From the UHGV virus genome UHGV-1642828: 16,115 bases of DNA, one strand, 5' to 3'. This document shows, one piece after another, positions 2,647 to 7,042 of the stretch. The DNA comes from a virus. Position 1 is the first letter of the stretch. The number at the start of each line of letters is the position of its first letter. A program made the position numbers and the translations under genes. Below the pieces are notes generated by a model. The model was not told where the DNA came from and made no database searches. It saw only the letters and a program-made list of their open reading frames with translations.

Positions 2647-2969
2647 ACTTTCAAGCCCCTCTCATGTAACCAGTGGGCTGCACGCAACCTGGCGTTCTCC
2701 TCACCGGCAAGCAGTGCGCGGATGATACCGACCGCTTCGCTGTCGTCGTCCTTCACTGCGGTATGAAGCGTGATCCCCCGGGCCACGCCACGCTTTATCG
2801 TGATGACGCCTTTTTTCTCCAGTGCGCGAAGATGCTCCACCGCTGCATTCACTGAACGGTATCCCAGCATGGTTGCCACCTCCTGATTGGTTGGCGGGAA
2901 GCCACGTTCTTTCTGGTAAGAAATCAGCATATCCAGCACCTGCTGCTGGCATTGAGTTAACGTCGTCAT
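2643..2969 (-). CDS. LexA DNA-binding-domain protein without a peptidase domain
   Basis: 108-aa ORF whose N-terminal 70 aa align position by position with the LexA N-terminal winged helix (LT..QQ.V.D.I......G.PPT..E.A..LG.RS.NAA.EHL.AL..KGVI.I..G..RGI.L). There is no Ala-Gly/Ser/Lys S24 domain. It is translationally coupled to the methyltransferase upstream and rusA downstream. Confidence 0.6.
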   Translation of the reverse strand: MTTLTQCQQQVLDMLISYQKERGFPPTNQEVATMLGYRSVNAAVEHLRALEKKGVITIKRGVARGITLHTAVKDDDSEAVGIIRALLAGEENARLRAAHWLHERGLKV

Positions 2970-3619
2970 GCCGCCATCTCCCTGACCAGTTTTTCCGCCT
3001 GCTGGCGAACCTGCGCCAGAAACGCCTCACCACATGCCTCAAGTTCATCACGCCCGATGTAGCTGATTGCCGGTCCCTTCCAGGTCTTGTCGAAAACAGC
3101 AATAGCGCCAGCGAAGAAAGCGCCTGTCGGCACCTGCTTATCGTCCTTCGGGATAAACCAGGCAGGCAGTTCAAAACCAATACGCCCGCGAATAAAAGCA
3201 ATATGATCCGCATCTTCCGGCCACCACACTTCGCTGGTGGCAGCTTTGATCAGGAAAACATAGCGCCCGCCCTTATCACGCATGGCACTGGCATGTTTCA
3301 TGATGTAACGCATGCCGGTGATGTATTGCCCCTCATGCTGACTGGCGCGGCTGTATGGGGGATTACCAAAGGCAGCCCCTTTAAGCTCCGCAAGACGTTT
3401 TGACCAGTCATGCGCCAGCGCGTTGTCTTCCGCCGTGTAATACGCGGCACATTTGGCGTTATCACCGTCAGTGAACAGATCCAGAACAAACGGGCCAAAC
3501 AGGGTGTTAATTCCCCAGAAAATGTTGTCCGGCGTGCGCCACTGATCGCCCACTTCCTTCAGTTCATGGGCTGGTTTGTTCCGCAGTTCCACCAGCGCCT
3601 GGCAATATTTATTACTCAT
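2966..3619 (-). CDS. Phage DNA N6-adenine methyltransferase (Dam family)
   Basis: ORF with the FGNPPYS motif (NPPY catalytic motif IV of amino-methyltransferases). The longest ORF starts at 3652, but the ATG at 3619-3617 (MSNKYCQ...) overlaps the upstream stop as TAATG and is the more likely start. Confidence 0.7.
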   Translation of the reverse strand: MSNKYCQALVELRNKPAHELKEVGDQWRTPDNIFWGINTLFGPFVLDLFTDGDNAKCAAYYTAEDNALAHDWSKRLAELKGAAFGNPPYSRASQHEGQYITGMRYIMKHASAMRDKGGRYVFLIKAATSEVWWPEDADHIAFIRGRIGFELPAWFIPKDDKQVPTGAFFAGAIAVFDKTWKGPAISYIGRDELEACGEAFLAQVRQQAEKLVREMAA

Positions 3620-4113
3620 TAAGCCCCCACGTAATTCCCTGACAGATACCACTCTTCACCTGATGCAGCCCGCTTACTGCTTTTCCGTAAACACCGTTCA
3701 CGACGCGCCAGAAAATTGTTTCGTTCTGGCTGGGAGTGGCTTTCACGGAATGCCGCCATCCACACCGTTGCAGCACGACGGTATAAGCCCCTGGACTCCA
3801 GTTCTTCCGCCTGGCGGGTCAGGCACAAAATCACCCGCGGGTCGTTAGTGCCGACATAGAAATTGCGCACAGGTCTGGTTTCACGAACTGGTTGTGGTTC
3901 CGGATCCTGCGCTCTCTCAGTCAGGCGCTGGAAATGTCTGTGTGTATCTCCTTCACAACGGTGAGCCACACGACCACTCTGACGTAACTTGCTTGCTGAC
4001 TGCAGAACGCGCTGCCGTGAGTAACCTGCAAAAGCATCCGCAATGTCTCCGGAAGTACAGCCCGGATGGGCTTCAATGAATTTCTGAACGTCATTCAAAA
4101 GACTCATGCTCAC
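3619..4113 (-). CDS. Putative regulator: N-terminal winged-helix-like region plus C-terminal PerC-like motif
   Basis: 164-aa ORF. The C-terminal AEELESRGLYRRAATVWMAAF...RRERCLRK resembles the recalled PerC/Pch signature (A..LE..GLWRRAA..W ... R..CL). Its start overlaps the replication gene stop (ATGA). Confidence 0.4.
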   Translation of the reverse strand: MSMSLLNDVQKFIEAHPGCTSGDIADAFAGYSRQRVLQSASKLRQSGRVAHRCEGDTHRHFQRLTERAQDPEPQPVRETRPVRNFYVGTNDPRVILCLTRQAEELESRGLYRRAATVWMAAFRESHSQPERNNFLARRERCLRKSSKRAASGEEWYLSGNYVGA

Positions 4114-5051
4114 CCCCTGAATCCTGCCGGGATCTGGCTGTAGTCCACATTGTCGTAACTGGCTTTGAAGTACGGGTCTTCGCGTTTTTCTGTGTACGTG
4201 CTGACGGACGGCGATAAGCGCAGGGAAAGCTCATCCCATTTTTCCCGCAGCTTCGACGGGCTGAGCACGTTACGGCACCAGAACGGATCGCGGCTGACGC
4301 GGCTGTACATCTCGCAGATTTGTTTGTGAGTACGACCATCCTGCACACACATCAGGCGAATTTCGTTTGCCCAGGCTGTCCAGTTCGGTTCTTTGGGACG
4401 AACCACCTCGCCGTCACATTCGGCAGCCTGCTCGTACAGGGCGATGATTTTTTTCCAGAGCCACTGTGCGCAGGTCAAATCATCCTGCGTTCCCCACTGG
4501 CGCTTTTTAGGGCTGAATACAACCGCATCAGGATGGCAAGTTAAAAAATCCTGTTCAGCCGTCTGCGTGTCCGGTTGCGAAGCGTCCGGACGAGAAGGTT
4601 TTTTATCTGACGGATCATGTTTTGATTTTACTGACGGATCCCCGCCAGATTCTGACGGGTGAAAACCCGATTTTTTGCCAGATTTCGACGCATCAAATTT
4701 TGACGGGTCAGATTTTGATGCGTCAGATTTTGACGGGTCAGAATCTGACAGTTGAGAAAATGCCGCTGCCTGAAGCTTCGCAACGTTAAGCTGATAAACA
4801 TTCGACGCATTGCGGTTACCCTGGCGACGCGCCTTACGCGTTAACCAGCCTTCTGCTTCCAGCCGTGCGATAGCCGTTCTGACGGTGCTCATCCCCGCGC
4901 CAATCTGGCGGGCAATGGTTTCAATTGATGGCCAGCACATACCTTCGTCATTACTGAAATCAGCCAGGCGGGCCATAATTGCCACGCTGGATAATTTCAT
5001 ACCTGACGCTGCACAACCATCCCATACATAGCCGGTTAATTTAGTGCTCAT
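4110..5051 (-). CDS. Phage replication initiation protein (N-terminal HTH, Ser/Asp/Lys repeat linker, C-terminal domain)
   Basis: 313-aa ORF with an N-terminal HTH-like region (SIETIARQIGAGMSTVRTAIARLEAEGWL), a central DPSKSDASKSDPSKFDASKS repeat encoded by 15-bp tandem DNA repeats, and a conserved-looking C-terminal domain. It occupies the O-gene position after the cro/cII-like genes. Confidence 0.55.
   Translation of the reverse strand: MSTKLTGYVWDGCAASGMKLSSVAIMARLADFSNDEGMCWPSIETIARQIGAGMSTVRTAIARLEAEGWLTRKARRQGNRNASNVYQLNVAKLQAAAFSQLSDSDPSKSDASKSDPSKFDASKSGKKSGFHPSESGGDPSVKSKHDPSDKKPSRPDASQPDTQTAEQDFLTCHPDAVVFSPKKRQWGTQDDLTCAQWLWKKIIALYEQAAECDGEVVRPKEPNWTAWANEIRLMCVQDGRTHKQICEMYSRVSRDPFWCRNVLSPSKLREKWDELSLRLSPSVSTYTEKREDPYFKASYDNVDYSQIPAGFRG
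4602..4755. repeat. Iteron-like tandem repeats inside the replication gene (candidate origin)
   Basis: Four contiguous in-phase 15-bp units at 4681-4740 (GATTTCGACGCATCA, AATTTTGACGGGTCA, GATTTTGATGCGTCA, GATTTTGACGGGTCA), flanked by degenerate copies containing CTGACGG at 4605-4617, 4631-4640, 4651-4660 and 4741-4751. Confidence 0.5.
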
Positions 5052-5060
5052 GACCGACCC

Positions 5061-5399
5061 CTATTTCCCTGAATTTACGACGAAACTGTTCGAGCGGACT
5101 GAAGCATTCATGCTCATAGCCTTCACGGAGGTAGATAACACGTTGTGTTTCCGGCTCCCAACGAATGACTCTGACGGGCACTCAGTAGTGATCTTTGAAC
5201 CAGCGGTTAACTTGTTGCAAAGGACTGTCTCCTTCTGCCGGTTGAAATCACCCACAGCCCACTCGGCAAAGCTGTGGGTTACAATTTCCCTGTCACCTGG
5301 TACATTCACTGCATAGCAATACTCCACCTTCGCTTTTCCACCCGGTACAGGAAGCGCAATCAGTTGCGAGCGACGGTAGTGTGTTGTTAAACTGTTCAT
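5061..5399 (-). CDS. Hypothetical protein (small ORF between the YdaT-like and replication genes)
   Basis: 112-aa ORF whose start overlaps the ydaT-like stop (ATGA) and which ends 10 nt before the replication gene start. No family recognised. Confidence 0.4.
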
Positions 5400-5980
5400 G
5401 CGTTAGTTTCTCCACAGTCACGACACGCCACGGCGCCCGGAGCTGCACACTCGCGGGCGTCATTACTTTCTGAAATGCAAAAGATTTTGTAGACCAGTGC
5501 TGCATGCTCCTGCAGCTTCGAAATTGAGAGATACAGCTCGTCGTTAATTGCTGTCTTCTCATGCGGTTCCACCACACCGTCTTCGATTGCCGAACGAATC
5601 TGTCTGGAATAACTGCCAATCTGTTCAATGACTTCCAGCAGGCGCTTGTTAATATCGGCGTTGTCCACATCCTCGACGTCAGGAAGAGACACAAAGACGC
5701 CATTTGCAGACTGCGCCACAGCGTCAGCAATGAAGTGAGTTCCACCAGCACGTTGCAAAACCATTGCCAATCCCAGCGGGAAAATCTGATCGCCATCGGC
5801 ACGAAGGCGGTTAAATAATGCGTTCTCTGTTACATCCAGCCAGTCAGCAGCTTCAGCGTAACCACCCGGCAACGCCGCGATAGTTTTTCTGACAGCTTTC
5901 ACGTACCACTCAGGCTGTTTTTCTACTTTCCAGTGATGCTTACCCACGGCTATCTCCTTAAAACTGTGGTTACTTTCCAT
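5396..5980 (-). CDS. YdaT-like protein (cII-position regulator of Rac-type prophages)
   Basis: 194-aa ORF immediately downstream of and overlapping the YdaS/Cro-like gene, in the same arrangement as ydaS-ydaT in the Rac prophage. Assignment is by synteny and general resemblance only. Confidence 0.5.
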
Positions 5981-6218
5981 CTGATAAGTCTTTAATCTTT
6001 TGAAAAATATCTGGACGTAATTTTTCTTTTGATACGCCAGTGGTCATTTCAATAAATATCGAGAGTTTTGCAGGGGGACGCTTTTCTCTGTTCAACCAGT
6101 TCCAGACATGTTGTTGCTTTACTAAACGACCACTGCTGGCTGTGAGCTTCCGAGCCAATTCTGATTGACCACCAGCCAGAGCGATTGCCTCTGATAAGGC
6201 TAATTGCTCAGGTGTCAT
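5970..6218 (-). CDS. Cro-like HTH regulator (YdaS/DUF1019-like)
   Basis: 82-aa ORF, first gene transcribed divergently from cI. It contains GGQSELARKL ... RLVKQQHVWNWL ... LRPDIF, resembling recalled YdaS. A GGAGA Shine-Dalgarno lies 6 nt upstream of the ATG. Confidence 0.65.
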   Translation of the reverse strand: MTPEQLALSEAIALAGGQSELARKLTASSGRLVKQQHVWNWLNREKRPPAKLSIFIEMTTGVSKEKLRPDIFQKIKDLSDGK

Positions 6219-6355
6219 AGCTTTCTCCTATCTGTAAGTAGTAAAGTTGTTGATAACTTCGATTATACAACTACAACAACTTTTATCACAACTTTTAGAT
6301 GTTGGAAAGCTAAAACATAAAGTTGTAACCTCAATAAAAACGAGGGGGATATGTT
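6219..6355. promoter_or_regulatory. Divergent promoter/operator region (OR-like) between the cro-like gene and cI
   Basis: 137-bp AT-rich spacer with repeated AAGTTGT / ACAACTT half-sites (6244-6259 AAGTTGTTGATAACTT; 6288-6304 ACAACTTTTAGATGTTG; 6320-6326). On the minus strand there is a perfect -10 TATAAT (plus 6262-6267) with TTGTGA as -35 (plus 6286-6291, 18-bp spacer), reading toward the cro-like gene. A possible weak cI promoter lies toward 6356. Confidence 0.6.
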
Positions 6356-7042
6356 GTGAAAACATTGGCAGAAAGACTAAAAAGCGAAAGAGAAAAAGCA
6401 GGAATGAGTCAGGCGCAACTAGCTGAAAAAATTGGGCTTTCACAACAATCCGTAGCGAAAATCGAGAATGGAGAAACTCAACAGCCTCGGAAAATTAAAG
6501 AGATTGCTAAAGTGTTAGGGGTTTCTCAAAAGTGGTTGCAATTGGGCATTGAGGATAACGCGTCTTTCCCAGACCTTGTTGTAAAGGAGGCTGAAAGTAC
6601 AGCATTAGATCCTGACATTTTTGCAAACATTCCAGTCCTAGATGTCGAGTTATCAGCGGGTAATGGATGTTTGGCTGAAATAGTTGAATCAACTGTAGAC
6701 TGGTTCCCGCTAAGAAGGATTGATTTAAGAAAAGCTGGTGTATGTGTCTCCAATGCAAAGATCGTAAAAATTTGGGGCAATAGTTTACTACCTGTACTTA
6801 ACAATGGAGATTTTGTTGCTGTTGATGTTTCCCAAACGGTTCCTATTCGTGATGGGGATCTTTATGCCATACGTGATGGCGTATTACTTAGAGTTAAAAT
6901 ATTGATCAATTTACCTGACGGTGGTCTGATTCTAAGAAGTTTCAATAAAGATGAGTATCCAGATGAAATACTCACCTTCGAAGATAGGCGTTCAAGAATT
7001 CACGTTATAGGTAGAGTATTCTGGTCATCGCGCACTTGGTAA
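6356..7042 (+). CDS. cI: cI-type prophage repressor (HTH XRE domain + LexA-like S24 autopeptidase domain)
   Basis: 228-aa ORF with a GTG start preceded by GAGGGGGA. It has an N-terminal HTH (MSQAQLAEKIGLSQQSVAKIENGE), an Ala-Gly cleavage site (LSAGNG), a Ser in GNSLLP and a Lys in LRVKIL, which is the LexA/cI autocleavage architecture. Confidence 0.85.
   Translation: MKTLAERLKSEREKAGMSQAQLAEKIGLSQQSVAKIENGETQQPRKIKEIAKVLGVSQKWLQLGIEDNASFPDLVVKEAESTALDPDIFANIPVLDVELSAGNGCLAEIVESTVDWFPLRRIDLRKAGVCVSNAKIVKIWGNSLLPVLNNGDFVAVDVSQTVPIRDGDLYAIRDGVLLRVKILINLPDGGLILRSFNKDEYPDEILTFEDRRSRIHVIGRVFWSSRTW

Follow-up and report, generated by a model that had tools for sequence, protein, structure and literature searches.

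Can a run of short tandem repeats that lies entirely within a protein-coding gene be the place at which a phage starts to replicate its DNA, or does it reflect nothing more than a repetitive peptide? The question is raised by positions 4599-4752 of the virus genome UHGV-1642828, a stretch of 16,115 bp (in full, the window), where a first-pass annotation had pointed to iteron-like repeats inside the gene for a replication initiator and had drawn an analogy with phage lambda. The window is a lambdoid prophage of the SfII/SfIV type, a type common in E. coli and Shigella; its initiator gene is 98.8% identical in nucleotide sequence to SfIV gp41 and 98.7% identical to the gene for an SfII "O protein family protein". 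We consider it likely that the repeats are the replication origin of this prophage, placed inside its initiator gene. The case draws on how the DNA of the repeats has been conserved, on which protein domain the repeats accompany when phage modules are exchanged, and on the resemblance of the arrangement to known in-gene origins.

The initiator gene and its repeats

The gene and its presumed DNA-binding part occupy the following positions in the window.

4110..5051, minus strand: replication initiator gene, 313 amino acids, with a winged-helix N-domain, a repeat linker, a helical C-domain, and a DnaT-like tail
4761..5051, minus strand: N-terminal winged-helix DNA-binding domain, amino acids 1-97, the presumed reader of the iterons

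The winged helix is recognized by Pfam HTH_36 at amino acids 23-70 (E 3.5e-12), the helical C-domain begins at about amino acid 189, and the full length of the protein is matched by PHROG 391, "replication initiation O-like" (E 2e-134), "O-like" being a functional label. RefSeq labels the gene only as coding for a "helix-turn-helix domain-containing protein", and no origin is annotated.

At 4679-4742, Tandem Repeats Finder reports both a period of 15 (4.3 copies, 81% matches, score 86) and a period of 30 (2.1 copies, 88%, score 100), and a repeat search placed in-register copies at 4679, 4694, 4709, and 4724, with degenerate copies at 4608 and 4631. The unit on the coding strand is TCA AAA TCT GAC followed by CCG or GCA, which reads S-K-S-D-P/A, and the array as a whole translates to SDPSK SDASK SDPSK FDASK S, part of the linker that joins the helix-turn-helix domain to the C-domain. 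Two elements of the first-pass annotation, namely four contiguous in-phase units of 15 bp and a DPSKS/DASKS peptide repeat in the linker, are thus confirmed by the repeat searches and by the translation, respectively. The array is better described, however, as copies of an 11-bp near-palindrome, TCARAATCTGA, five in tandem at 15-bp distances and one isolated, than as a plain 15-bp repeat. The slightly looser pattern TCARAWTYTGA occurs four times in the window, every time within 4693-4748, compared with 0.07 occurrences expected from shuffled sequences, none of which reached four; allowing one mismatch adds the cores at 4678-4688 and 4645-4655.

4738..4748, minus strand: iteron 1, TCAGATTCTGA, a perfect palindrome
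4723..4733, minus strand: iteron 2, TCAAAATCTGA
4708..4718, minus strand: iteron 3, TCAAAATCTGA
4693..4703, minus strand: iteron 4, TCAAAATTTGA, a perfect palindrome
4678..4688, minus strand: iteron 5, TCGAAATCTGG, degenerate, with a position weight matrix score of 16.6 compared with 25-29 for iterons 2-4
4656..4669, no strand assigned: small conserved G+C hairpin, CGGGTGAAAACCCG, separating the tandem array from the isolated iteron
4645..4655, minus strand: iteron 6, TCAGAATCTGG, isolated, 33 nucleotides past iteron 5, the best conserved copy across genera
4599..4640, no strand assigned: A/T-rich stretch, A-rich on the coding strand, the presumed unwinding region

The "degenerate flanking copies" that had been described around the four central units need to be redefined in this light. 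One is the degenerate tandem unit at 4678-4688 and one is the fully conserved isolated core at 4645-4655; the other two are direct repeats of a different kind, GATCCGTCAG, at 4631-4640 and 4607-4616 in the A/T-rich stretch. The same stretch holds two GATC sites, 24 bp apart (4637-4640 and 4613-4616), and includes the lowest GC content of the gene (0.325 at 4600-4639). GATC is not enriched over the window as a whole, and DnaA boxes close to the element do not exceed chance. Many database entries for the initiator protein (P0002-P0015) end at about 140 amino acids, near the run of A residues past the iterons.

Selection on the DNA of the repeats

To what extent the repeats are kept as DNA, rather than as peptide, can be read from homologs. 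We collected 77 genomic loci encoding relatives of the N-domain, representing 68 distinct genes with N-domains 69-99% identical, 66-68 of which were used in each analysis. Their hosts belong to more than 20 enterobacterial genera, including Escherichia, Citrobacter, Kosakonia, Kluyvera, Buttiauxella, Yersinia, Pantoea, Rahnella, Ewingella, Proteus, and Providencia. Protein searches with the N- and C-domains gave only fragments of query length, which were used for the C-domain alignment; gene diversity was taken from the genomic loci.

A comparison of repeat number across homologs, which had been suggested as a check, found the repeat in all 68, mostly with 4-11 cores per gene and with a single core in one sequence. 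An iterated position weight matrix located 407 copies, all but one of them (406/407) in the linker. Of 339 intervals between cores, 269 are of 15 nucleotides, and a single conserved copy is found 33 or 48 nucleotides past the array. Copy number also varies at close range, differing by one to three units in 8 of 80 near-identical phage contigs (L083-L162); these come from a scan of viral contigs that yielded 99%-identical copies only and served solely to detect this polymorphism.

The first-pass annotation had reasoned that conservation of the protein with free synonymous sites would speak against an origin. The homologs have the opposite pattern, in that synonymous sites are nearly frozen and the residues vary. 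Information content tracks position in the core, not position in the codon: The third codon positions A6, A9, and T12 carry 1.65, 1.28, and 1.28 bits, and the spacer (fifth, or "x") codon carries 0.45-0.63 bits at all three of its positions and encodes P, A, T, G, V, or R. The Lys of the unit is replaced by Glu in 39% of units, a reversal of charge, and AAG and GAG are almost never used. Codon choice in the linker departs from that in the rest of the gene, in that TCA and TCT make up 85% of the Ser codons (N-domain 20%, C-domain 34%), AAA 96% of the Lys codons (N-domain 61%), and GTA 68% of the Val codons (N-domain 16%). These preferences are not a general A/T bias, since TCA and TCT each have their own Ser position in the unit.

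The contrast is sharpest around the isolated iteron. At conserved columns with fourfold or sixfold degeneracy, the N-domain has a pairwise codon identity of 0.35. Of 16 such columns for the block F-D-P-S-E-S-G-G-D-P-S-V-N-S-K, the DNA of which is TTT GAC CCG TCA GAA TCT GGn GGG GAT CCG TCA GTA AAT TCA AAA, 10 have an identity of 1.00 and five lie at 0.70-0.94, and the first Gly codon (GGn) is the sole free column, at 0.40. Where the amino acid is retained, the codons TCA GAA TCT of iteron 6 show 97-100% identity. At the level of single nucleotides, conservation among 66 homologs is at least 95% over most of GTTTT.ACCC.TCAGAATCTGG.GGGGATCCGTCAGTAAA.TCAAA, including the GTTTT.ACCC of the G+C hairpin, and decays where the C-domain starts. 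In the same 66 homologs, the A+T content of the A/T-rich stretch is 0.67, compared with 0.48 for the whole gene; the first GATC site is retained in every one (66/66) and the second in 58/66.

Synonymous resampling of the linker in the window gives 0.33 cores of the form TCAN5TGA, compared with five observed, and none of 2000 resamples reaches five. The result is similar for most of eight other homologs; for the Providencia variant L055, which has one core, it is not significant (P 0.09). An overlapping reading frame was considered as the cause of the conservation and rejected, since the alternative frames are interrupted in most homologs and the best of them is open in only 30 of 66. With synonymous sites frozen while residues change freely, the DNA itself is under selection. 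This selection is purifying, and it acts on the repeats independently of the peptide that they encode.

Repeat type follows the DNA-binding domain

Which protein might read the repeats is indicated, indirectly, by mosaic relatives, in which the parts of the initiator have been exchanged. In Citrobacter phage phiNP, both the N-domain and the 15-nucleotide repeats are those of the window (83% nucleotide identity), and the C-domain and neighboring genes differ. The reverse exchange is seen in mEp460_4F5, which shares with the window the C-domain, the 112-residue gene upstream, and a similar downstream set (Dam, LexA-like, RusA). Its N-domain is unrelated, and the linker part of its initiator gene carries six copies of a different repeat of 23 nucleotides with the core GTCAYTTTGACC (L004:3034-3167); a period of 23 is incompatible with a peptide repeat. 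SfV has a third type of N-domain and repeats spaced at 24 and 42 nucleotides (L003:2950-3054). Three types of N-domain thus correspond to three types of repeat, with the C-domain and the neighbors swapped independently. The arrays of mEp460_4F5 and SfV, which are not annotated in their records, are likely to be the origins of those phages.

Mosaic exchange has its boundary at 4573-4609, immediately beyond the A/T-rich block, which means that N-domain, iterons, and A/T-rich stretch travel as one module. At this boundary the otherwise unrelated initiators of mEp460_4F5, phiNP, and the window have the peptide S(R/C)P..A.QPD in common, and the region encoding it may be the recombination joint between a module for origin specificity and a C-domain module. 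The putative recognition helix and the wing are also highly conserved: In an alignment of 16 diverse homologs, S55 and T56 of the helix are invariant and R58 and T59 are present in at least 90%, and in the wing R75, R76, G78, R80, N81, N84, and Y86 are invariant and N79 is present in at least 90%. Near-invariance of the putative recognition helix and wing residues fits the invariance of the iteron core.

Comparison with known origins

The analogy with lambda that had been drawn for this locus holds in its anatomy. Both origins, if the window's element is one, lie inside an initiator gene, between the parts that encode the N-terminal DNA-binding domain and the C-terminal domain, and both comprise several direct repeats with dyad symmetry followed downstream by a tract that is A-rich on the coding strand. 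In lambda, four annotated iterons at nucleotides 349-433 of O precede the A-rich tract; in the window, the six cores occupy nucleotides 304-407 of the gene (codons 102-136) and the A-rich tract follows, with the A/T-rich flank on the same side and with the same strand bias as in lambda. In both cases the gene is placed in the pR operon after cro and cII, and in both the repeat sequence changes with the type of N-domain in mosaic relatives. The differences are in the parts themselves. The two initiators have no detectable homology, that of the window having an HTH_36 domain rather than Phage_rep_O; the iterons of lambda are 18 bp long compared with a core of 11 bp here, and number four compared with five in tandem plus one isolated. 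Further, the phage in the window has no P gene, and its initiator has a DnaT-like tail. The likeness to lambda is architectural only, and the element may be called ori-lambda-like without its initiator being counted in the O family. The conserved block GTCAGAATCTGGCGGGGATCC (4636-4656, minus strand) resembles GTCAGAGAATTCTGGCGAATCC, which is found just to the right of the A/T-rich region of the lambda origin (L163:664-685); given that the initiators are not homologous, this resemblance may be due to chance.

It is established for lambda, P22, and phage L that iterons within the gene differ along with the specificity of the initiator, and gene 18 of phage L contains six imprecise copies of an 11-bp sequence (PMC8022706). 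The window's element is similar in having distinct short iterons in an O-analogue gene, and in the case of L also in their number and length. It differs in that the partner gene 12 of P22 and L encodes a DnaB-type helicase and the window has no helicase, and the iteron sequences are unrelated. An in-gene iteron origin of this type is thus already known in kind from lambda, P22, and L, and the element described here would add a new member.

The closest class is that of the "O-only" modules (LLS, mEp460_4F5), which were found in 34 of 314 lambdoid phages and the replication of which was called not understood (Zheng et al. 2025, PMC12315714); neither the origin nor the tail of this type is described in that study. 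Like these modules, the window has a single O-like gene, no helicase or loader, and a high density of Chi sites, and mEp460_4F5 has the same C-domain and tail; the N-domain and iterons of mEp460_4F5 belong to another type of specificity. In a literature search, mainly of open-access papers, we did not find these iterons or a DnaT tail in phage initiators described, although a prior description is possible.

Other explanations for the repeats

Constraint on the DNA shows only that something reads it, and that reader could act in a process other than replication. The repeats might be a cis-acting element that is not an origin, such as autoregulatory operators, a roadblock to transcription, or sites for SeqA/Dam, a CII-like protein, or some other protein. 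Plasmid iterons often double as autoregulatory sites, and the conserved GATC sites occur in a phage that encodes a Dam methylase. We nonetheless think such a role on its own unlikely, because the repeats change with the N-domain and not with the neighboring genes (mEp460_4F5, phiNP), because the position of the array and its A/T-rich flank copy those of the lambda origin, and because the early region contains no other candidate origin or replication gene. Control of the candidate origin by methylation or SeqA is conceivable, given the conserved GATC sites and the Dam gene in the operon. The repeats could also act as RNA, their palindromes forming a long hairpin in the initiator mRNA that controls translation or stability, and the minus strand at 4596-4760 is predicted to fold at -53.2 kcal/mol (z -6.4). 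However, tandem palindromes automatically give a high fold score. Copy numbers from 4 to 11, odd as well as even, mean that no fixed pairing partner is kept; the core is invariant and the spacer of 3-4 nucleotides is free, with no compensatory changes; and no Rfam family matches, with only sub-threshold hairpin hits found. An element acting at the RNA level is accordingly very improbable in our view. Finally, the array might be nothing but a low-complexity SDxSK linker that expands and contracts by slippage, its similarity in DNA resulting from recent duplication or from an overlapping frame. It is true that the units are all in phase, that they encode a linker rich in Ser, Asp, and Lys, and that copy number is polymorphic among near-identical contigs. 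Yet synonymous sites are frozen across genera in which those of the N-domain are close to randomized, the peptide is the part that is not conserved (the Lys/Glu swaps and the variable spacer codon), resampling gives P <1/2000, the sister module of mEp460_4F5 has its 23-nucleotide period, and the alternative frames are broken as described above. We therefore give this explanation almost no credence.

Several observations weigh against an origin and have to be set beside the evidence for it. We infer initiator binding and origin activity from comparative evidence. Every copy of the repeat is in a single codon phase, which tandem duplication within a gene would also produce, and the predicted RNA fold just mentioned belongs here as well. 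The start-to-start distance of the repeats, about 20-24 bp in lambda, is a tighter 15 bp in the window. Homology of the initiator to lambda O had to be rejected, in that a profile of 16 N-domain sequences aligned to it by hhalign with a probability of 0.4% and Pfam PF04492 (Phage_rep_O) gave no match at E <0.01. The paper on the SfIV genome makes no mention of an origin. Lastly, the origin reading does not in itself explain how a helicase is loaded in a phage that has no loader gene.

A possible course of initiation and the DnaT-like tail

If the repeats are an origin, it would comprise 4599-4752, where the only replication gene of the phage encodes the linker of the initiator. The winged-helix N-domain of this protein would bind the six TCARAATCTGA iterons as dimers, and the resulting nucleoprotein complex, aided by transcription from pR through the gene, would open the adjacent A/T-rich stretch that bears the GATC sites. 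Host DnaB-DnaC would then be brought in by the C-terminal part of the initiator, most probably through its DnaT-like tail.

That no helicase-loader gene is recognizable downstream, as the first-pass annotation had noted, is borne out by Pfam annotation of the genes in the window, including those downstream of the initiator, among which there is no P-, DnaC-, or DnaB-like gene. The downstream genes are instead PerC-like, Dam, LexA-DBD (DNA-binding domain), RusA, KilA-N, and DUF968/HNH genes, in a layout that is annotated in SfIV as well. The suggestion made at the time, that host loading factors are used, agrees with the O-only class (Zheng et al. 2025, PMC12315714). In a phage with neither a helicase nor a loader gene, host DnaB-DnaC would have to be recruited by the C-terminal part of the initiator, which ends as follows.

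4113..4175, minus strand: C-terminal tail, last 21 amino acids (...DYSQIPAGFRG), homologous to the tail of E. coli DnaT

Eight of the last nine residues of the initiator are identical to residues 171-179 of DnaT (SQIPPGFRG) by BLASTP, and hhalign of a profile of C-domain homologs against DnaT gives a probability of 89.9% (E 1.7e-6) over DnaT 159-179. Some C-domain homologs read VNHISEPDTEIPPGFRG compared with VNTVSEPDSQIPPGFRG in DnaT, and DYSQIPAGFRG or a close variant ends all four initiators that were aligned together. Over the rest of the C-domain, neither profile nor fold comparison gives a likeness to DnaT. When the DnaT tail was searched for by tblastn in 50,697 phage records, nearly all matches fell at the 3' ends of initiator genes. 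Among eight contexts inspected, the next gene is a DnaC homolog in four (Gifsy-1, 75/02 Stx, vB_EcoS-666R9, SPN3UB), and the remaining four (SPN1S, ST11-OXA245phi3.2, HannyBb, Pantoea AH07) have neither a loader nor a helicase gene after the initiator; in none of the eight does a P-type loader or a DnaB-type helicase follow the tail-bearing initiator. There is a parallel in the host, where E. coli dnaT (L005:1979-2518) adjoins dnaC, just as several tail-bearing phage initiators adjoin a phage homolog of dnaC.

The homology of the tail suggests that the initiator recruits host DnaB-DnaC directly. A more general idea, which we put forward tentatively and as somewhat less probable than not, is that the ...IPxGFRG tail, in E. 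coli DnaT as in many phage initiators, serves to dock a DnaC-type loader or the DnaB-DnaC complex. It is based on the homology of the tail, its location at the ends of initiators, the next gene being either a DnaC homolog or no loader, and the adjacency of dnaT and dnaC. If it is true, O-only phages would need no loader gene, with the iteron-bound initiator pulling host DnaB-DnaC onto the opened origin, and a function would be given to residues 154-179 of DnaT, for which none is described in the available structural literature on DnaT.

We also asked whether, within the 68 homologs, having the GFRG tail goes together with having no loader, and rejected such a link as not clean: C-domain type D (335-349 amino acids) lacks both the GFR tail and a downstream loader, so the tail cannot be the sole route. 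In a homolog from a Serratia metagenome-assembled genome (L050:2501-3403), the motif IPEGF is internal, the protein ends in ...GGTDDDFI, and a DnaC/IstB-like AAA+ gene follows. We take this end to resemble the acidic tip of SSB.

Gene neighborhood of the candidate origin

The order of genes on the minus strand of the window is that of a classical early-right operon.

6356-7042, plus strand: cI-like repressor, on the strand opposite to the early operon
6262..6291, minus strand: pR-like promoter match, TTGTGA-18-TATAAT (10/12), a consensus match only, between the cI-like and cro/YdaS-like genes
5970-6218, minus strand: cro/YdaS-like gene
5396-5980, minus strand: cII-like gene
5061-5399, minus strand: gene of 112 amino acids, function not assigned, directly upstream of the initiator
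2966-3652, in the same operon as the initiator: Dam methylase gene

Transcription that starts at the pR-like match would run through the candidate origin. The window also contains 10 Chi sites (GCTGGTGG), at 788, 917, 1188, 2337, 3233, 3589, 5742, 6169, 9855, and 13297, compared with 0.48 expected, and eight of the 10 are on the minus strand, that of the operon. In the "high Chi" class of lambdoid phages, those without a recombination module of their own depend on host RecBCD (Zheng et al. 2025, PMC12315714), and the Chi density of the window fits this class.

Distribution and significance

Among 5426 complete E. coli genomes, 2107 have at least a partial match to the segment that encodes the N-domain and the repeats (4560-5051), and in 1576 the match extends over 80% or more of its length; the segment is also found in prophages across Enterobacterales. 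Two records of "non-mobilizable plasmids", CP085522.1 (41,492 bp) and NZ_CP081716.1 (37,667 bp), are of phage size and carry a module of N-domain plus iterons that is 88-89% identical. They may be circular phage genomes or phage-plasmids that use an origin of this kind.

The locus is a worked case of a DNA element inside a coding repeat, one that annotation pipelines and the ratio of nonsynonymous to synonymous substitution rates (dN/dS) would misread as a disordered linker. The iteron core, its isolated copy, and the A/T-rich block with GATC sites together provide a concrete candidate origin for those lambdoid phages that have just one replication gene, a class whose mode of replication was called not understood as recently as 2025 (PMC12315714). 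An origin would thereby be defined for a replication module that is abundant and poorly understood, and the DnaT-like tail yields a testable idea of how the helicase may be loaded onto it.

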